A stretch of 59,684 nt of DNA. Source: Candidatus Omnitrophota bacterium (GTDB taxonomy: Bacteria > Omnitrophota > Gorgyraeia > Gygaellales > Profunditerraquicolaceae). Both the position numbers and the translations under genes were made by a program. The DNA is taken from positions 1-59,684 of the forward strand of contig JAQUMX010000007.1 in assembly GCA_028717885.1 (NCBI GenBank), written 5' to 3'. Of this stretch, positions 1 to 55,395 are shown piece after piece. The notes under the pieces are model-generated. The model did no database searches and was not told the origin of the DNA. It saw only the letters and a list, made by a program, of their open reading frames with translations. Numbering within the stretch: position 1 is the first letter of the stretch; each line of letters begins with the position of its first letter.

Positions 1-893
<893 letters not shown>

Positions 894-999
894 ATTTATT
901 CGAAGTATTATGATAACGGCTCTAATGATTTTTTGTTTTTTTACCTCTTGAAATTGACCCAGATAACTTGCGTTATCAAGGCCACGCTTGGCTATCCAA

Positions 1000-1012
1000 T
1001 TATCAAAAGAAC
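1000..1012 (-). promoter_or_regulatory. boxA-like antitermination element in the rrn leader
   Basis: GTTCTTTTGATAA on the minus strand about 110 nt upstream of 16S; resembles rrn boxA. Confidence 0.5.
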
Positions 1013-1080
1013 GGTGATTAAATCTATTGTATAAGACACCCGAACCTAAAGGATGGTTCGGTGTGCCGCCTTCTGCGGCA

Positions 1081-1115
1081 AACAAAAAGACGCCCCGACA
1101 ACTGCCGGGGCGTCT
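1081..1115 (-). terminator. GC-rich hairpin plus U-run inside the rrn leader
   Basis: AGACGCCCCG-N8-CGGGGCGTCT followed by TTTTGTT on the minus strand. Confidence 0.5.
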
Positions 1116-1232
1116 AAAATTTACAAAACGCCGCTAGTCGGTTTTTTAACTGCTATCCGAATTTGTCAATGCTGTTGTATTTAATATTCACTAATTTAAA
1201 CAGCCTACCCTTTCTTTAAGGATGGGATATTA

Positions 1233-1260
1233 AATATAACAGATAATTGTTTTTTGTCAA
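1233..1260 (-). promoter_or_regulatory. sigma70-type rRNA promoter
   Basis: TTGACA(1260-1255)-16 bp-TATATT(1238-1233) with a TGn extension and an AT-rich UP-like tract at 1261-1280. A second TTGACA at 1169-1164 has a weak -10. Confidence 0.75.
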
Positions 1261-1295
1261 GTATTTTTTTAATAAAATTATAAGTGATGTAATTA

Positions 1296-1328
1296 CATAG
1301 TGTTTATCGTCTATGATAATGCACTATG
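1296..1328 (-). terminator. Imperfect hairpin just downstream of pilC
   Basis: CATAGTG..TTATC / GATAA..CACTATG inverted repeat; no clear U-run. Confidence 0.35.
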
Positions 1329-1341
1329 GGGGGGTATTACG

Positions 1342-2547
1342 CTACTTAGAAATCAGCTGCGTAATCTTAAAGATCGGCAGGAACAGTGAGATTACGATTC
1401 CGCCGATGATAATACCCAGGAAAGAGATAACCAAAGGCTCGATCATGCTGGTTAGGCCGGAAACCGCGGCATCCACCTGGTCATCGTAGAAATCGGCTAT
1501 TTTGGTAAGCATTTTTTCCAACTGCCCGGTCTGCTCTCCTACGCTGATCATCCTGGTAACCATAGGAGGAAAAACTCCGCTCTTAGCTAACGGCGCAGAG
1601 ATCCTTTCGCCTTCGCGCACCGAAGTACGGCAATCCGAGATCGCTTGCTCAACTACCTTATTCCCGGCAGTCTTGGAAACAATATCCAGGGCGCTTAATA
1701 CCGAAACGCCACTCTTAACTAACGTAGAAAATGTCCGGGAAAATTTTGCTACTGCCACTTTACGGAAAAGCGGCCCTAAAATCGGCGCTTTCAATTTCTG
1801 CCCGTCAAACTGCATCTTCCCTTTTGGAGTATTGATATATTTCTTAAAAAGAAAACCTCCTGCAACGAAAACGCCTACCACCGGCAGGAAGAAATGTTTT
1901 AAGACATCGCTGATGCCAATCAATATGCGGGTAGGCAAAGGCAGCTCTCCTCCCAACATATCAAAGATCCCTTTAAATGTAGGTACGACTTTCAGCAGCA
2001 GAACCGCAGTAATCAAAAGCGACATGGAAACTACTACTGCGGGGTAAATCAGGCTGGAGGTAACTTTTCGGGTCAATGCTGCGGTTTTTTCCAGGTAAGT
2101 TGCCAACCTATCCAAAACCTCATCCAACATACCCGAAGCTTCTCCTGCCTGCGTCATATTGATAAAAAGATCGGAGAATACCGCCGGATGCTTGGCTAAA
2201 GCATCGGAAAAACTCAAACCGGCTTCGATATCTTTACGTGCGGCAGCTACCACTGCCTGAAGGTTTTTATTTTCGATCTGTTCGCTCAAAATCCCCAATG
2301 CCTGAACCACCGGAATACCTGCATCGATCATGGTGGCTAATTGCCGGGAAAAAATTACCAGGTCATCGAGTTTAACCTTGCCTCCGGCTTTTCCTTTTGC
2401 CGCAGCTTGTTTCTTAGCCTGCTTGACTGCCAAAATAATCAATTCTTTCTTATGCAAAGACTCGGTAACTTCCGCTTCGCTGTTTACTTCCAGCGTGCCG
2501 GTTACGGTTTGGCCGTTCCTGTCTTTAGCAGTATATTGGAAGATCAT
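1342..2547 (-). CDS. pilC: Type IV pilus inner-membrane platform protein PilC (GspF family)
   Basis: FSRQLATMIDAG, AGEASGMLDEVL and GEQTGQLEKML motifs; two GspF repeats with three TM helices. Confidence 0.95.
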   Translation of the reverse strand: MIFQYTAKDRNGQTVTGTLEVNSEAEVTESLHKKELIILAVKQAKKQAAAKGKAGGKVKLDDLVIFSRQLATMIDAGIPVVQALGILSEQIENKNLQAVVAAARKDIEAGLSFSDALAKHPAVFSDLFINMTQAGEASGMLDEVLDRLATYLEKTAALTRKVTSSLIYPAVVVSMSLLITAVLLLKVVPTFKGIFDMLGGELPLPTRILIGISDVLKHFFLPVVGVFVAGGFLFKKYINTPKGKMQFDGQKLKAPILGPLFRKVAVAKFSRTFSTLVKSGVSVLSALDIVSKTAGNKVVEQAISDCRTSVREGERISAPLAKSGVFPPMVTRMISVGEQTGQLEKMLTKIADFYDDQVDAAVSGLTSMIEPLVISFLGIIIGGIVISLFLPIFKITQLISK

Positions 2548-3617
2548 ATTTTATCCACAATCCTCAAGAAACATTCCACTACTTTGGGATCAAACTGCGT
2601 TCCGTTGTGTTTTTCGATTTCCCTGACAGCCGCTTCTTTGGTTAAAGGGATTTTTCGATAAGAACGCGCCGAGGTCATCGCTTCGTACGCATCTGCCAGA
2701 TGAATGATCCTGGCGCCTAAAGAAATCTCCTCTCCTTTTAAGCCATCAGGGTATCCCGAACCGTCAAAATGTTCATGATGCTGACGGATTAATTCTATCA
2801 CGCCATGCAGAAAAGTCAACGGCTCCAAAATCTGCGCTCCAGTCAAAGGATGCCGCTTCATCAGCTCCCATTCTTCCTTGTTTAATTCCGCAGGTTTGAT
2901 CAAAATATTATCTTGGATGCCGATTTTGCCCAAATCATGCAATTCACAGGCTTCCCGGATTAGCTCGATATCCTTGGCAGAAAGATGCATCTCTTCGGAA
3001 ATAAGCGTAGCGTATTTCGCGACATTCTGCGAATGGCTGTGCGTATAATGATCCCGGGCGTCGATTGCCTGGGCGAGTGCGCGGATCGTGCGCATATAAG
3101 TAGAGCGCAGGTCTTCGTAAAGCCGGGTTAAATTTTTCGTCGAGTCTTCGATGCGTTTAGCCAAAAGCGTATTCTGTTTTTGCAGGGACAAATTCTGTTC
3201 TCTGATACTATGCTGCAGCTTACGGTGCGCCAAAGACATCGTATGCAGGTCAATCCCTTTCTTCACTAAAAAATCCAATTTCCTGTCATCGATCGGCAAA
3301 CTGATAAAATCATAGATTCCTAACTGGAGGTTAGTTTTAATCAACACCGGGTCGTCCTGCTCGATTAAAGCGATAATCACCACGTCGGGATCGACTTTGC
3401 GTAATTGCGCCACGGTTTCCGCCGCATCAAAATAAGGCATATCTAACTTAATAATTACCAAATCAAAAGCAGTGGTTTTGAAAGTTTCGATTCCTGCCGG
3501 GCCGTTATGCTCCGCAAAGAAAGAAATACTGGCTTGCCCTTGCGCAGCCATCTTTGCCTTTAAATAAGTGGTAATTTCGCTGTTATTGTTAATCAGTAAA
3601 ATTTTCGGATCTGCCAT
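2544..3617 (-). CDS. Pseudo-receiver + coiled coil + HD-GYP cyclic-dinucleotide phosphodiesterase
   Basis: HS..V, LHDLGKI, HHEHFDGSGYP, AD..RSYR. The N-terminal REC-like fold lacks the acidic pocket and the phospho-Asp. Confidence 0.9.
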   Translation of the reverse strand: MADPKILLINNNSEITTYLKAKMAAQGQASISFFAEHNGPAGIETFKTTAFDLVIIKLDMPYFDAAETVAQLRKVDPDVVIIALIEQDDPVLIKTNLQLGIYDFISLPIDDRKLDFLVKKGIDLHTMSLAHRKLQHSIREQNLSLQKQNTLLAKRIEDSTKNLTRLYEDLRSTYMRTIRALAQAIDARDHYTHSHSQNVAKYATLISEEMHLSAKDIELIREACELHDLGKIGIQDNILIKPAELNKEEWELMKRHPLTGAQILEPLTFLHGVIELIRQHHEHFDGSGYPDGLKGEEISLGARIIHLADAYEAMTSARSYRKIPLTKEAAVREIEKHNGTQFDPKVVECFLRIVDKI

Positions 3618-3641
3618 AGTTGTTCTCCCCTTAAGTTGTAA

Positions 3642-5345
3642 TTATTCCTCGGTAGTTATCCTTAAGGCTTCGTCGAGAGAAGTTAGCCCATCTTTCACCT
3701 TTAGAAAAGCATCGTCCCTTAAGGTGCGCATGCCGCGTTTTTCGATTGCGTATTTTTTGATATCGTCGATGGATTTCTTGCGCATCACCAGGTCGCGGAT
3801 CTCATCATCAATCATAATTACTTCCAGGATTGCGATTCTTCCGTAAAAACCTGTATTATTGCAATAGGAACAGCCTTGCGCGGTATAAAATTTTGTTTTT
3901 TCCTTAAAACCGATTTTCTGCAAGAAATCAGGGCTGATCTCCGTAGGTTTCCTGCATTTCAGGCAAAGTTTGCGCGCCAACCTCTGGGCGCAGAGCATAA
4001 TCAGGCTCGACGCCACTAAAAACGGCTCAACCCCCATATCGATCAGGCGCGTAACACTGGAAATAGCATCATTAGTATGCAATGTAGATAATACTACCTG
4101 GCCGGTCAATGCCGCTTTTACCGCAATATCCGCGGTTTCTGCGTCCCTGATTTCTCCGATAAGAATGACATCCGGGCTCTGGCGCAGCAAGGAACGCAGC
4201 CCCGAAGAAAAATCCAGGCCGATATCCGGCCTTGCCTGCACCTGGGTAATACCTTCGATCTGGTATTCTACCGGGTCTTCAATAGTAATGATATTTCGTT
4301 CCGGAGTATTAAGCTGGTTTAAAACTGAGTACAAAGTGGTGGATTTTCCTGATCCCGTTGGGCCTGTAACCAGGATCATGCCAAATGGCTTTGCCACCGC
4401 TTCTTTAAAAACCCTCTTTGGCTCGTCGGAAAAACCCAGCTGCTCCAATCCGATCGAAAGGTTTGATTTATCCAGCAAACGCAAAACGAACTTTTGCCCG
4501 AAAGTCGTAGGCAAAGCAGAAACGCGAAAATCCACTTCCTTGTTTTCGAACTTCACTTTAAACCTGCCATCCTGCGGCAGCCGGTTTTCCGTAATATCCA
4601 AATTAGAGATAATTTTTAACCTCGCCAACACTGCATTCTGGTTTTTCTTCGGCAGTTTCAAAATATCATGCAGAGAGCCGTCAATGCGGTACCTGACCCG
4701 CAAACAATCCTCTTCCGGCTCGATATGGATATCCGAAGCCCGCTTTTTAAGCGCCTGGGTAAGCATTAACTCTACAATCTTGATAATCGGAGGCTTTTCG
4801 CTTTCTTTAATCGCACTGGAAAGCTCGATCTCCTCGGGCTTAATTCTCTGCGTATCATCAGAACCTTGCCCTTCGCCGCTCTCATCCAGGATCTGTTGAA
4901 TATCCTTGGTATCTTGGTGATACTGGGTTTCAATCATATGCATGATTTCTGTTTCCGAGCTTAAAACCGTATCTATATTGCATCCGGTAAGTGTCTTTAA
5001 ATCATCGAGCGCAAAAATATTCAAAGGGTCCGACATTGCTACGGTCAGGGTGTTGCCGATACGCGAAAGCGGAATAATTGAATATTGCTTGGCAAGGCGC
5101 TCCGGGATAAGGCTTAAGATTTCCGGGTCGAATTTATATTTTGCCAGATGTAAAGTCGGGATAAACAGCTCCTCGGAAAGGAGCGACAAAAGCTGATCCT
5201 CGGTAATTAATTTCTGCTGGATGAGGATTTTACGCAAAGGCGCTTGCTTGGCTTTCTGCGCCTCGATAGCCTTATCCAGCTGCTCTTTGCTCAGCTGTTT
5301 ACTCTTGATCAAGATTTCGACAATACTTTCTCTTAAACTATGCAT
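3642..5345 (-). CDS. pilB: Type IV pilus assembly ATPase PilB/GspE, paralog 2
   Basis: Walker A GPTGSGKST, Walker B ILIGEIRD, STLHT, tetracysteine CLKC..CSYC. Confidence 0.92.
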   Translation of the reverse strand: MHSLRESIVEILIKSKQLSKEQLDKAIEAQKAKQAPLRKILIQQKLITEDQLLSLLSEELFIPTLHLAKYKFDPEILSLIPERLAKQYSIIPLSRIGNTLTVAMSDPLNIFALDDLKTLTGCNIDTVLSSETEIMHMIETQYHQDTKDIQQILDESGEGQGSDDTQRIKPEEIELSSAIKESEKPPIIKIVELMLTQALKKRASDIHIEPEEDCLRVRYRIDGSLHDILKLPKKNQNAVLARLKIISNLDITENRLPQDGRFKVKFENKEVDFRVSALPTTFGQKFVLRLLDKSNLSIGLEQLGFSDEPKRVFKEAVAKPFGMILVTGPTGSGKSTTLYSVLNQLNTPERNIITIEDPVEYQIEGITQVQARPDIGLDFSSGLRSLLRQSPDVILIGEIRDAETADIAVKAALTGQVVLSTLHTNDAISSVTRLIDMGVEPFLVASSLIMLCAQRLARKLCLKCRKPTEISPDFLQKIGFKEKTKFYTAQGCSYCNNTGFYGRIAILEVIMIDDEIRDLVMRKKSIDDIKKYAIEKRGMRTLRDDAFLKVKDGLTSLDEALRITTEE

Positions 5346-44945: not shown

Positions 44946-46274
44946 TTAACTTCCTTTCTTGGTTAATTTCGTAATCAAGGCAATCTCTTCTTCCTTGGTC
45001 TTTACCTTGCCGTTTAACCTGGCCTTTAGGAGAGAATCGAATATTTTTTTATAATGCGGCCCGGGCTCAATCCCCAACTTGCGCAGGTCTTCCCCCTTTG
45101 TGTGCGGCCGCAAGCCATTAAACTCTTTGAAAAAAACCTGAATATTTTTTTGCAAGCAGATATTTCTGTATTTAGCCTTCAGCGCAATCAGGACTTCGTA
45201 ACTTAATGGCTCAAGGGCCTGAAAGATCTGCGATGGCTTAATATTCTTGCCGCATAAATTCTTGATTATGCGCGGGCTTAAATCTTTAAAACTTAAAATT
45301 CTTTTCTTCACTCCCGAAGGAAAAGCAAACCTCCGGCAAAAATCTCTTACCTGTGCCAATTTCAAAACATCCAACATGCCTATTAGATAAACCAACCAGC
45401 TCTCCAGCTGCCGGCGATGGGCATACTGGCGCTCAAACCAGCTAATTTCCCGGCTGATGCCCTTAAGCAGCTCCAACTGCTTATCGGATAAGGTTAAACG
45501 AGGGTGCATAAAAGTAAAACCGGACAGTTTTCTTACCCTGTTAACCTGGCGCACCGGATCATACTCTTTTAAAACCAGGACCAGCTCATCGCGCAATCTT
45601 TGCGGCTCGACACTATTTAATGCTTTTTCCCTGCAGCTTTTTTGCAAAAGCTTAAGCGTATGCGGCTCGATCCTGAAATTAAAGCGCTGTTCAAAACGGA
45701 TTGCCCGCAAAATACGCGTCGGGTCGTCAACAAAACTTAAATCGTGCAAAACGCGGATCTTTTTATGCGCTAAATCTGCCTTGCCGTTAAAAATATCGAC
45801 CAGCTTGCCGTAATTTTTTCCCGAGATAGATATTGCCATAGCGTTAATCGTAAAATCCCTGCGAAAGGCGTCGTCTTCCAGGCAACCGGGAGTTACTTCG
45901 GGCAGAGATGCCGGGTGCGGGTAAATTTCTTTTCTCGCGGTAGCAATATCGATCTTTCGAATACTCTCAAGATCGATGGTGAGCAAGGGCGAACCATCGA
46001 TTTTTAATTTATGCGCCAAGGCCAAGGTAGCAGTGCCAAACCTCCGGTGGCGGGTGATCTTGGCGTTGAATTTTTCGCCTAATTTTTCTGCGAAAGCTAT
46101 GCCATCCCCCTCAATTACGATATCCAAATCGAAATTATCCACTCCCAAAATCAAATCCCGGACAAAACCGCCCACCAGATAAGCAGGCATATCCATCTCG
46201 GCAGCAAGCTTTCCGATTAAATGCAATATTTCCTGAAGGTCTTTAGGCAATTTTTCCAAATATTCTTTCATCAA
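44946..46274 (-). CDS. cca: CCA-adding enzyme / poly(A) polymerase family nucleotidyltransferase
   Basis: VGGFVRD, DLD, FGT, DIATAR.E, RRDFTINAMA, DDPTRILRAIRF. Confidence 0.9.
   Translation of the reverse strand: MMKEYLEKLPKDLQEILHLIGKLAAEMDMPAYLVGGFVRDLILGVDNFDLDIVIEGDGIAFAEKLGEKFNAKITRHRRFGTATLALAHKLKIDGSPLLTIDLESIRKIDIATARKEIYPHPASLPEVTPGCLEDDAFRRDFTINAMAISISGKNYGKLVDIFNGKADLAHKKIRVLHDLSFVDDPTRILRAIRFEQRFNFRIEPHTLKLLQKSCREKALNSVEPQRLRDELVLVLKEYDPVRQVNRVRKLSGFTFMHPRLTLSDKQLELLKGISREISWFERQYAHRRQLESWLVYLIGMLDVLKLAQVRDFCRRFAFPSGVKKRILSFKDLSPRIIKNLCGKNIKPSQIFQALEPLSYEVLIALKAKYRNICLQKNIQVFFKEFNGLRPHTKGEDLRKLGIEPGPHYKKIFDSLLKARLNGKVKTKEEEIALITKLTKKGS
45948..46001. repeat. Back-to-back hairpin doublet inserted in frame in cca
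   Basis: Three ATCGAT at exact 24-nt spacing (45948, 45972, 45996); two hairpins share the middle copy; adds GSPLLTID-LESIRKID. Confidence 0.85.
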
Positions 46275-46289
46275 AATTTTTCCTTCTAC

Positions 46290-47177
46290 TTAAGGCCTGG
46301 GATGATACATCCGATGTATTGCCTTGAGCCGCTCCTTATTTACATGCGTGTAAATTTGGGTCGTGGAAATATTCGCATGCCCCAGCATTTCCTGAACCGA
46401 ACGTAAATCTGCCCCTCTTTCCAAAAGATGGGTTGCAAAAGAATGCCTCAACAAATGCGGCTTGATCGCTTTTTTGATCCCGGCGCTCCTGGCGTATTTT
46501 TTGATTAACTTCCAGAATGATTGCCGGGAAATTTTCCCGCCCATGCGGTTTAAAAAAAGGAATTCGCTTGTCTTTTTGCCTAACAGCTTAGGCCGGCTTG
46601 CTTCCAAGTAGCGTTTAATCGAAGCAATTGCCTTTTTTCCCAGCGGGATTACCCGCTCCTTATTGCCTTTGCCGATGCAGCGCAAAAAACCGATCTCTAA
46701 ATTTACATTATCCTGCCTTAAGTTTACTGCTTCCGAAACGCGCATTCCCGAAGCATATAGAGTTTCCAGGATTGCTTTGTCCCGGAGCCCCTGGATATGG
46801 CGGCTATCGGGCTGGTTAAGCAACATTTCCACTTCGCCTACGGAAAGCGATTCGGGAATCCGTTTCCAGAGCTTAGGAGTTTCTACCAGGCTGGTAGGAT
46901 CCGTGTTCAGAATTCTTTCCCTGACGCAAAAACGGTAAAATGATTTTATCGCTGCCAAACGCCGGGCAATGGAATTTGCTCCGATGCCTTTATTTTTTTG
47001 AAAAAGCATGAAATCGGTGACATTGTTCCTATTCGTCTGCGATAAAGCATTAATGGATTTTCCGGTAATATAATCGAAGTAGGCATTCAGGTCCTGGCGA
47101 TAGGAAGAAATCGTATTATTCGCTAACCCTCGCTCTACCGAAAGATAATCTAAAAAAGTATTAATAAATTCTTTCAT
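46290..47177 (-). CDS. xerD: Tyrosine recombinase XerD
   Basis: SVERGL..NT, G.R..E, GKGNKER, HLLRHSFATHLL, LGHA..STTQIYTH. Confidence 0.92.
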   Translation of the reverse strand: MKEFINTFLDYLSVERGLANNTISSYRQDLNAYFDYITGKSINALSQTNRNNVTDFMLFQKNKGIGANSIARRLAAIKSFYRFCVRERILNTDPTSLVETPKLWKRIPESLSVGEVEMLLNQPDSRHIQGLRDKAILETLYASGMRVSEAVNLRQDNVNLEIGFLRCIGKGNKERVIPLGKKAIASIKRYLEASRPKLLGKKTSEFLFLNRMGGKISRQSFWKLIKKYARSAGIKKAIKPHLLRHSFATHLLERGADLRSVQEMLGHANISTTQIYTHVNKERLKAIHRMYHPRP

Positions 47178-51592: not shown

Positions 51593-51618
51593 CATCACAT
51601 CCCTCTAAAATGAATTAG

Positions 51619-51693
51619 TCGGGGCGAGTGGACTTGAACCACCGACCTCAGCGTCCCGAACGCTGCGCTCTAGCCAAACTGAGCCACGCCCCG
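51619..51693 (-). tRNA. tRNA-Pro (anticodon CGG), CCA not encoded
   Basis: CGGGGCG/CGCCCCG acceptor stem, D-loop AGTTTGGCTA, CAGCG-TTCGGGA-CGCTG, TTCAAGT T-loop; 3' flank is A-CTA. Confidence 0.97.
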
Positions 51694-54095: not shown

Positions 54096-54904
54096 TTTGC
54101 TTCCTTTAATTTTTCCACCAACTCATAAGGAATCTTGATTGAGCCAATCCGGACCTCCGGCTTGGCCTTGCCGTGGCAGTCAGAGCCTCCTGTAGCCACC
54201 AAATGATATTCTTTTGTAAGGTTTAAATAATAGTTACGCATCGATTGCGTATGCTCCGGGTAATAAACCTCTAACCCCATTATTCCCGCTTTAATATAAT
54301 CGAGGATAAGGCTATCATTATGGACACTGTAGGGATGCGCCAAAACAGGTATACCTCCTGCTGACTTAATCAAACCGATTGCCTGCTGCACGGAAAGCCT
54401 AAAACCCAATACATAAGCCGGGCATTTATCTCCGATATATTTATGAAAAGCTTCGAAAATACTGGAAACGATTTTTTCCTTTAGCATTGCCCTGGCTACA
54501 TGCAGCCTCCCTACTGTGCCGCCTCCGGAAATCTCAAATACCGATTCCGCATTCAAATCAATACCTATATTTTTAAGTTTCTCGGTAATTTTGTAAATCC
54601 GTTGGATACGGTTTTCCTTTAAGGAAGCCAATTGTTTAAGCAATGCGCTATTCCTATAATCAAGACAATAGCCTAAAACATGCACTTCCTGATTATCTTG
54701 CTCGGCAGTCAGCTCAATCCCCGGGACAACTTCCAAATCCACTGCCTTAGCAGCTTCTACGGCAGGGATAATTCCGCCTACGGTATCATGATCGACTACG
54801 GCAATAGTAGAAAGCCCCACACGGTGCGCTTCTTGAATCAGCTGGGAAGGAGTATAGGTACTGTCAGAGTAGGTAGTGTGCAGATGCAGGTCAGCATATC
54901 TCAT
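54089..54904 (-). CDS. PHP-domain phosphoesterase (TrpH/YciV-like)
   Basis: DLHLHTTYSD, DHD, GIELT, HVLGY, LAHP, GGSDCHG. Confidence 0.92.
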   Translation of the reverse strand: MRYADLHLHTTYSDSTYTPSQLIQEAHRVGLSTIAVVDHDTVGGIIPAVEAAKAVDLEVVPGIELTAEQDNQEVHVLGYCLDYRNSALLKQLASLKENRIQRIYKITEKLKNIGIDLNAESVFEISGGGTVGRLHVARAMLKEKIVSSIFEAFHKYIGDKCPAYVLGFRLSVQQAIGLIKSAGGIPVLAHPYSVHNDSLILDYIKAGIMGLEVYYPEHTQSMRNYYLNLTKEYHLVATGGSDCHGKAKPEVRIGSIKIPYELVEKLKEAKC

Positions 54905-54978
54905 CCTTCGCTCGTTTCATGTTTAGTTAATTTCTTTCGCTCAGGATGACCCTGAGCAGATTTTTGCGAATGGGTCAT
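54901..54978. repeat. Back-to-back hairpin doublet filling the nusB-PHP gap
   Basis: Minus strand TCATCCT-GA-GC..GC-GA-AGGATGA abuts plus strand TGACCCT-GA-GC..GC-GA-ATGGGTCA. Confidence 0.8.
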
Positions 54979-55395
54979 CTATTTTTTTATTTCTATCTTT
55001 ATCTTGTCCAATATACCATTCACGAATTTTCCCGCTTCTTTGCCGGAAAATTTCTTTGCCAGCTCCACCGCTTCGTTAATCGTTACTTTAGGCGGAATAT
55101 CGGGCCGGAAAGCCAGCTCAAAAACCCCCAGGCGCAGGATATTCCTGTCTACAAACGCCATGCGTTCTAATTGCCAATTAGTGGCGAATTGGGTGATTTT
55201 TTCATCGATCGCTGCCAGGTTATCTACCGTGCCCTTTACCAAATCAGCGCTAAATAGTTTCACCTCTTCCTCTATTTCTTCATCCGCTTTTGCCTGCCAG
55301 AATTTTTTTAAGACCTCTTCGCAGCCTTCATGGCAGATATCGATCTGGTAGAGGATTTGTAAAGCGAATTCCCGGGCAAGCGTGCGTTTTTTCAT
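54979..55395 (-). CDS. nusB: Transcription antitermination factor NusB
   Basis: R..ARE.ALQ.LY, W..ER...[22 protein letters not shown]. Confidence 0.97.

Follow-up and report, generated by a model that had tools for sequence, protein, structure and literature searches.

The 59,684-nt stretch of DNA analysed here (contig JAQUMX010000007.1 of the Candidatus Omnitrophota assembly GCA_028717885.1, hereafter the window) contains a class II tRNA nucleotidyltransferase gene (cca) that is interrupted in frame by a 48-nt palindromic sequence. This insert is most probably one old copy of a mobile palindromic element of very small size, termed type A here, which is widespread in Omnitrophota. Its membership in a dispersed family and the borders of the insertion are demonstrated by comparison with other genomes. 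A covariance model (R1) trained on 14 copies from other Omnitrophota genomes (alignment A4), with the window copy left out, matches positions 45948-46001 of the plus strand over its full length (model positions 1-54, 57.3 bits, E = 1.7e-14, the E-values of R1 being rough because of a short calibration). The minus strand of the same site scores 42.8 bits, and the next match in the window reaches 12.3 bits. Since the plus strand scores higher than the minus strand, the canonical strand of the element is antisense to cca. Relative to the A4 consensus, 41 of the 54 bases are identical and no gaps are required (authors' count). The first-pass annotation had proposed a 48-nt (16-aa) repeat-derived in-frame insertion with an ATCGAT duplication near a catalytic strand, a proposal upheld by the match to a dispersed family and by a 16-residue gap against the homologues.

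The element and its family

The features of the insertion site are as follows.

44946-46274, minus strand: class II tRNA nucleotidyltransferase (CCA- or A-adding type), 442 aa, intact (PF01743, solved homologues)
45945-45953, minus strand: codons K107-I108-D109 of the KIDIATAR strand, with D109 invariant in 119 homologues
45948-46001, plus strand (canonical): palindromic element including both flank hexamers, 54 nt (match to covariance model R1)
45948-45977: hairpin 1, ATCGATCTT - 12 nt - AAGATCGAT (inverted repeat I5, 100% complementary)
45972-46001: hairpin 2, ATCGATGGT - 12 nt - ACCATCGAT (direct reading; forms in computed folds)
45972-45977: centre hexamer ATCGAT, self-complementary

Direct reading of positions 45700-46300 locates the hexamer ATCGAT three times at 24-nt spacing (45948-45953, 45972-45977 and 45996-46001), exactly as the first-pass annotation had described. 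The plus- and minus-strand hairpins it had reported correspond to two perfect 9-bp inverted repeats with 12-nt loops, which have the middle hexamer in common. The arms of hairpin 1 lie at 45948-45956 and 45969-45977, where the flank hexamer plus CTT pairs with AAG plus the centre hexamer, while those of hairpin 2, at 45972-45980 and 45993-46001 and also 100% complementary, join the centre hexamer plus GGT to ACC plus the other flank. The plus strand thus reads ATCGAT CTT TCGAATACTCTC AAG ATCGAT GGT GAGCAAGGGCGA ACC ATCGAT. The net insertion amounts to 48 nt, its exact borders being ambiguous within the repeated ATCGAT, and because this hexamer is self-complementary, the centre is identical to both flanks in the window. 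The feature is one 54-nt element (flank, arm, centre, arm, flank) and not two independent palindromes. The "GA-GC..GC-GA" symmetry pointed out earlier is the conserved GAGC....TCGA arm of the element family; since the arms are mutual complements, one hairpin shows it on one strand and the other hairpin on the opposite strand.

The hexamer ATCGAT alone is not rare, with 36 occurrences in the window against 16 expected. A scan of the 1.47-Mb genome for two 9-bp stems with 12-nt loops and a common hexamer, at no more than two mismatches, returned only the cca site, and the same scan of five shuffled genomes returned none; chance is therefore no explanation for the doublet. Runs of N in contigs C13, C18, C20 and C54 of this assembly (G000) are a source of false positives in the palindrome scan.

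Members of the family follow the layout H - arm - H' - arm' - H, in which H is a hexamer and the centre, H', is its reverse complement. The arms are about 18 nt each, have the consensus sequences CCTTCGACTTCGCTCAGG and GGTGAGCGnAGTCGAACC, and are complementary to each other, which allows two alternative folds of the DNA or RNA: a single long hairpin, or a pair of short hairpins with the centre in common. Of 401 Omnitrophota genomes, 14 contain a pattern derived from the arms (up to three mismatches allowed), at 20 places in total, and a reversed control pattern has no occurrence in the same 401 genomes. The model R1 finds approximately 25 places in genome G365, 20 in G281, 14 in G380, 10 in G061 and 4 in G419; these counts are rough and were obtained by collapsing matches on both strands (41, 26, 18, 17 and 6 reported, respectively). 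The covariance model was needed because the arms are too diverged for exact patterns. No description of such an element in Omnitrophota was found in the literature searched, which yielded only mentions of CRISPR and unrelated papers.

Many copies lie inside long open reading frames (ORFs), in both orientations, which demonstrates in-frame occurrence in many genes. Copies are found within the Pfam domain matches of a PBP transpeptidase, CobT, a DegT aminotransferase and GvpL/F, and at the N-terminal edge of the domain in a T2SS ATPase, AnmK and radical-SAM hosts. When an empty-site partner was sought for the PBP copy (L042), the PBP genes in other loci proved to be a different paralogue. The reading frame is kept in the window cca gene and in at least seven other genes. 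Sense copies are read as PSTSLRVNGERSRT and antisense copies as INGSTTLTIDPERSRR(A/V)N, the latter sharing 10 of 18 residues with the peptide IDGSPLLTIDLESIRKID that the enzyme of the window gains from the antisense reading of the element. Four of the six reading frames of the consensus are open, and intragenic copies use those four; a copy in a tolerant surface loop can therefore give a longer working protein and persist.

Flank and centre covary across the family. Among the 14 copies, the first stem is 91% paired with four pairs changed on both sides (covariation 0.281 versus 0.157 after shuffling, a value reached in 0 of 500 shuffles), and the second is 92% paired with two pairs changed on both sides (score reached in 12 of 500 shuffles). 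The long arm-to-arm hairpin is also 92% paired and, being invariant, gives no covariation evidence either way. The covarying columns are the hexamers themselves, as in the flank/centre/flank combinations ATTGAC/GTCAAT/ATTGAT, ATTAAC/GTTAAT/ATTAAA, ATGAAC/GTTCAT/ATGAAC and ATCAAT/ATTGAT/ATCAAA. Set against the complement of the centre, the left flank shows a mean of 1.26 mismatches in 23 further copies from five genomes (22 different hexamers among them), compared with 3.72 for permuted flank/centre pairs (minimum of 2.74 over 5000 permutations). These 23 copies were found with a model that rewards such pairs, though the arms contribute most of the score. The identity of the insert as a known RNA family was considered and rejected, as an Rfam search of 45700-46300 produced no match.

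The host enzyme and its catalytic loop

The ORF at 44946-46274 is the sole long ORF that spans the insert site. Its product matches PF01743 (PolyA_pol head domain, E = 3.9e-25), and its best solved homologues are the CCA-adding enzyme of T. maritima (3h37, E = 8e-66) and the A-adding enzyme of Aquifex (4wby/1vfg, E = 5e-57); it is collinear with 3h37 and 4wby over its whole length. All 45 columns that are invariant in 119 homologues are kept in the window protein, including G35, G36, R39, D40, D49, D51, D109, R138, R139 and D140, and the GGxVRD, DxD and RRD motifs are present. The gene order xerD-cca-rbfA-nrnA is common to the window and the orthologues. The element sits at the I-D codons (ATCGAT) of the conserved K-I-D-I-A-T-A-R strand, and D109 would be a metal-binding carboxylate if the analogy with the Pol-beta-type fold holds.

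The protein sequence KLKID-GSPLLTID-LESIRKID-IATAR given by the first-pass annotation is reproduced by translation of the minus-strand ORF, which reads ...FGTATLALAHKLKID GSPLLTID LESIRKID IATAR. An AlphaFold2 model, suggested there as a check and built here from an alignment of 119 sequences, has high confidence outside the insert (overall mean pLDDT 92.7, pTM 0.87) and its lowest confidence within it. Apart from the last C-terminal residues, pLDDT falls below 50 only at residues 96-101, inside the insert; residues 91-100 average 49, and the low segment lies between the strands at 81-85 (FGTAT...) and 107-112 (KIDIAT). In this predicted structure the insert is a floppy excursion at the tip of a beta-hairpin of the catalytic head domain and the remaining fold is intact. 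The enzyme is otherwise intact and very probably functional.

The homologues define the empty state of this loop. In 3h37 and 4wby, the chain passes directly from the ...L(K/R)I(D/E) turn to the (I/F)ATAR strand, whereas the window protein has 16 additional residues there, and HMMER alignments to 3h37, 4wby and 1vfg each show a single gap, precisely 16 residues long, facing IDGSPLLTIDLESIRK. The closest orthologue is P0003, which is 67% identical, has the same synteny and is placed as the sister with 97% SH-aLRT support; it reads KLKIDIATAR, with the empty site AAG ATC GAT ATT. The short FGTA...ATAR spacing of 20 residues is found in nearly all orthologues from representative species of this family and order, and 97 of the 119 closest database homologues have no insert. 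The earlier statement that class II enzymes go directly from KID to ATAR thus agrees with both the solved homologues and the orthologues; aligning the latter, as had been advised, places the empty site at ATCGAT in the sister P0003. The reading as an insertion had been made to depend on whether orthologues free of the palindromes carry the same 16 residues, and orthologues of this kind were found to be without them.

Occupation of this loop is recurrent. Inserts are present in 22 of the 119 close homologues and are of at least three kinds: 10 homologues carry 16 residues of the type KID-PSTSL(RVN/EGH)GERSRTID-IATAR, four carry longer versions of the PSTSL...GERSRTID type, four have a different 19-residue insert, NPVRD...VSNGV, located three codons upstream, and three have other inserts. 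Sense-oriented copies, nested copies and unrelated 57-nt hairpin inserts all occupy the cca loop in other lineages. The sense copy in locus L034 has the same doublet layout as the window, ATTGAC CCT TCGACTTCGCTC AGG GTCAAT GGT GAGCGGAGCCGA ACC ATTGAT, and is the sole other doublet in a scan of all orthologous loci examined. In the same locus, phage- or defence-like genes (Terminase_5/HTH, RhuM) at 403-4040 lie upstream of the conserved ligA-xerD-cca cluster. In locus L035 (10301-10351), a second related palindromic element with the peptide SFDIAQDASKDAEPVEA is nested in the right arm of the type A copy in cca, which brings the total insert to 33 residues. The type A element is a 48-nt unit bordered by repeated hexamers, able to occur in either orientation, to be nested and to persist in frame.

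Closely related alleles delimit the inserted unit precisely. The alleles L037 and L038 have 94.6% nucleotide identity and differ by exactly 48 nt between ATTGA repeats, the junction being AAAATTGA[C CCT...ACC ATTGA]TATT, while in L039 and L040, which share 98.3% identity across 4.9 kb, the difference is exactly 57 nt, with TA(A) at its borders. The 57 nt directly upstream of the latter insert contain 11 substitutions, mostly synonymous, against a background of approximately 0.9 per 60 nt. This cluster 5' of the insert looks like a short co-transferred (imported) recombination tract or an insertion scar. In the pair L037 and L038, four substitutions fall within the 12 nt directly 5' of the 48-nt insert. 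The unrelated 57-nt hairpin element, which has a 14-bp stem (AACCCCGTTAGA...TCTAACGGGGT) and is bounded by TA/TAA, is also found in frame in cca of L036 (5268-5324) and L039, as well as in the adjacent gene xerD of L036 (4636-4692), where the protein has 314 aa versus 295 aa; it adds the 19 residues NPVR(D/N)...(V/I)SNGV.

On a cca gene tree built without the insert columns, the presence of inserts looks randomly scattered: it requires 18 changes, shuffled labels require 20.5, and the well-supported branches by themselves account for at least nine changes between presence and absence. In insert-free orthologues, the empty I-D codons mostly read ATCGAT (six), ATTGAT (six) or ATAGAY (six), and the empty-site hexamer equals the flank hexamer of filled alleles (ATTGAT in L038, ATCGAT in L033). 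Because the I-D codon hexamers of many empty sites match the hexamer of the element, the conserved K-I-D codons represent a standing target.

Origin, persistence and mobility of the insert

Several observations weigh against the interpretation of the insert as an old copy of a mobile element. A search of its own genome with R1 (E <= 0.1) detected no copy besides the cca site, and BLAST and strict arm patterns applied to this genome and to 227 kb of orthologous loci gave no copies beyond that site, the arms being too diverged for exact matching. The copy in the window is solitary and partly decayed: it differs from the consensus at 13 of 54 positions, and its arm-to-arm hairpin keeps 6 of 12 loop pairs, a loss read as decay of an old copy, while neither short stem has a mismatch. 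Flawless short stems beside a decayed long hairpin are not accounted for by simple neutral decay; the copy may descend from a subfamily or target with ATCGAT, may have been corrected inside the hairpin or may be under selection. The insert is presumably translated and tolerated. As regards a driving enzyme, Y1 genes (IS200/RAYT-type, PF01797) are present in all six genomes tested, including C21:1011-1355 and C15:17721-18020 in the genome of the window. No Y1 gene adjoins a copy of the element in the six genomes (the nearest, in G380 C11, is at approximately 5 kb), Y1 genes are also found in 6 of 14 control genomes, and no transposase is linked to the element.

The three ATCGAT hexamers at 24-nt spacing, a peptide that repeats ...ID every eight residues and the over-representation of ATCGAT in the window would suit a local origin without any mobile element, in which a 24-nt unit with ATCGAT at its end was duplicated in tandem or the palindromes formed by chance. 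Tandem duplication was rejected because the units are unrelated outside ATCGAT: the two match at 5 of 18 positions there, which is the random level. Moreover, the full 54 nt match a model derived from other genomes, and the same layout occurs with other hexamers in unrelated genes, which makes a local origin hardly credible. Equally remote is the removal of the insert after transcription or translation, in the manner of an intron or intein, to leave a mature enzyme of normal length. The hairpins would give a compact RNA structure, which lends this idea no direct support; Rfam yields no match, 16 residues are far too few for an intein, and none of the intragenic copies breaks the frame or uses either of the two closed frames. 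Splicing would make such a filter superfluous, which speaks against removal. The inverted arms around a 6-bp centre, together with xerD as the upstream neighbour, resemble a tyrosine-recombinase core site, an idea opposed by the variable targets without arms.

Selection for the insert itself, as a surface loop or as an mRNA or DNA hairpin that tunes cca expression, is improbable, though some of the evidence is compatible with it. The insert folds as DNA with a z-score of about -3.8, and its differences from the consensus are unevenly placed, with seven in the 30 stem positions, all mutually compensating, versus six in the 24 loop positions, which destroy the long hairpin. Such compensation could equally have been inherited from a subfamily or from an ATCGAT target, the empty site of the sister being ATCGAT; in addition, neither the closest orthologue nor most of the homologues have the insert, and it is the part of the protein with the lowest AlphaFold2 confidence. 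A serious possibility, if on balance not the expected one, concerns the scattered distribution only, and holds that one or a few ancient insertions were subsequently moved between lineages or erased, by homologous recombination and by precise deletion between the hexamer repeats, in place of numerous independent transpositions into a hot spot. The substitution cluster of L039/L040 has the mostly synonymous character expected of an imported tract, and precise deletion is classically associated with direct repeats on either side of a hairpin. On the other side stand the three or more unrelated insert types, both orientations of type A, the nested copy in the loop and the changes forced by well-supported branches alone; the ATTGAT/ATCGAT I-D codons that match the element hexamer in many empty sites also favour repeated targeting. 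The distribution is presumably due in part to repeated insertion or precise loss and in part to homologous recombination between alleles.

For the mobility of type A, the preferred but tentative reading, itself less likely than not, is that the element moves through a hairpin-folded single-strand intermediate whose centre hexamer would pair with a target hexamer. In that case the element itself would specify where it inserts, the target hexamer would reappear on both sides, and each event would add 48 nt, or 16 codons. The Ile-Asp codons (ATTGAT/ATCGAT) of the CCA-adding enzyme would serve as a permanent landing pad, and this, if true, would explain why one loop of an essential gene has been colonised repeatedly. 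The driving enzyme, a Y1 transposase or another protein, would be encoded elsewhere. A more specific and rather doubtful form of this proposal describes the family as a minimal self-guided single-strand DNA transposon, a 42-nt hairpin with a 6-nt loop guide that may pair with the target hexamer. The hexamer repeated on both sides could be a duplication, or a left target together with a right end. Whether the centre hexamer is passed on with the arms, as a guide would be, or taken anew from the target at each insertion bears on this proposal. In Mantel tests of arm similarity against centre similarity, r is 0.44 for all 31 copies, 14 of which were ascertained with a pattern that includes the centre, and 0.15 for the 16 model-found copies, a value reached by 508 of 5000 permutations.

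Known systems and further features of the genome

The single-strand transposons IS200/IS605 and their miniature derivatives reportedly use a short internal guide that pairs with the cleavage and target sites. They make no target duplication, and they carry or depend on TnpA. Their hairpin-based ends and a short internal sequence complementary to the flank or target make them the best available analogy for the flank/centre complementarity of type A; unlike them, type A has its hexamer on both sides, comprises 48 nt in all and has no linked enzyme.

REP doublets (REPINs) consist of units of 20-40 bp, and RAYT tyrosine transposases are believed to mobilise them (Di Nocera et al. 2013, PMC3733652). 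Like type A, they join short palindromes in inverted pairs capable of forming larger structures, and some are intragenic. However, the unpaired GTAG or CGTC end tag of REPs (PMC3733652) is absent from type A, whose ends are variable hexamers, and GTAG occurs only inside one arm of some type A copies. The flank hexamers of type A are repeated and complementary to the centre, and in none of the six genomes does the element flank a Y1 gene. A RAYT-style arrangement was rejected, since Y1 genes are present but never adjacent to copies.

Rickettsia palindromic elements (RPEs) are sequences of approximately 100-150 bp that are confined to Rickettsia (Ogata et al. 2000, 2002, reviewed in PMC10969869). 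They are palindromic selfish DNA found in frame in coding genes, including essential ones, where they are read through as an extra surface segment, and their presence varies between close relatives (PMC10969869). Type A likewise lies in frame in such genes and varies in presence between close relatives, and it is presumably read through as well. The Omnitrophota element differs in that it adds 48 nt and has a two-hairpin layout whose centre is complementary to its flanks, and the two have no sequence in common, so the resemblance is functional only. In behaviour, RPEs and intragenic REPs are its nearest counterparts, but by size, sequence, end tags and transposase association, type A is not a member of either the RPE or the REP group.

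In-frame selfish DNA in essential genes, known from Rickettsia, would thus have a second clear case in Omnitrophota, which are free-living or episymbiotic, with an element about three times smaller. The insert lies one residue stretch from an invariant Asp of an indispensable enzyme, indicating that core catalytic domains have loops that tolerate 16-33 extra residues. The complementarity of centre and flank, maintained through approximately two dozen different hexamers, offers a clue to how mini-elements without genes choose their sites. Such inserts also inflate protein lengths; peptides resembling PSTSLRVNGERSRT recur in databases as a result, and annotation of Omnitrophota genomes by alignment can be misled.

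Two further features of the window concern the need for CCA addition and possible relatives of the element.

51618-51693, minus strand: tRNA-Pro(CGG) with no encoded CCA (ARAGORN; 3' end ...CCCCGAC, followed by TAATTC)
54901-54978, minus strand: more distant relative of the element, ATGACC...CTCAGGGTCATCCTGAGCG...AGGATGA, after a TAG codon (R1 12.3 bits, E = 0.09 at 54926-54979)

The absence of an encoded CCA from tRNA-Pro in the window, reported by the first-pass annotation, is supported by both ARAGORN and the reading of its 3' end. By the authors' reading of 3' ends, about 23 of the 38 tRNA genes of the genome are without an encoded CCA, and because these are the majority, CCA addition is a requirement of the host genome. 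Contig C8 carries the gene for another class II nucleotidyltransferase, 478 aa long and including an HDIG domain (approximately 1400-2830, minus strand). Both class II enzymes are present in nearly all relatives, and a split pair of CC-adding and A-adding enzymes is possible in the phylum.

The relative at 54901-54978 has the structure ATGACC-arm-GGTCAT-arm-AGGATGA (ATGAC / GTCAT / ATGA layout) with a longer second loop. Relatives of the ATGA type, ATGACC...GGTGCGCGAG...GAGTCGAACC ATGA, are also found at gene starts elsewhere in the same genome (C6:23524-23585 and C6:56439-56505), and one of them lies directly before an ORF beginning MKISIIGAGNVGG, which probably encodes malate dehydrogenase.

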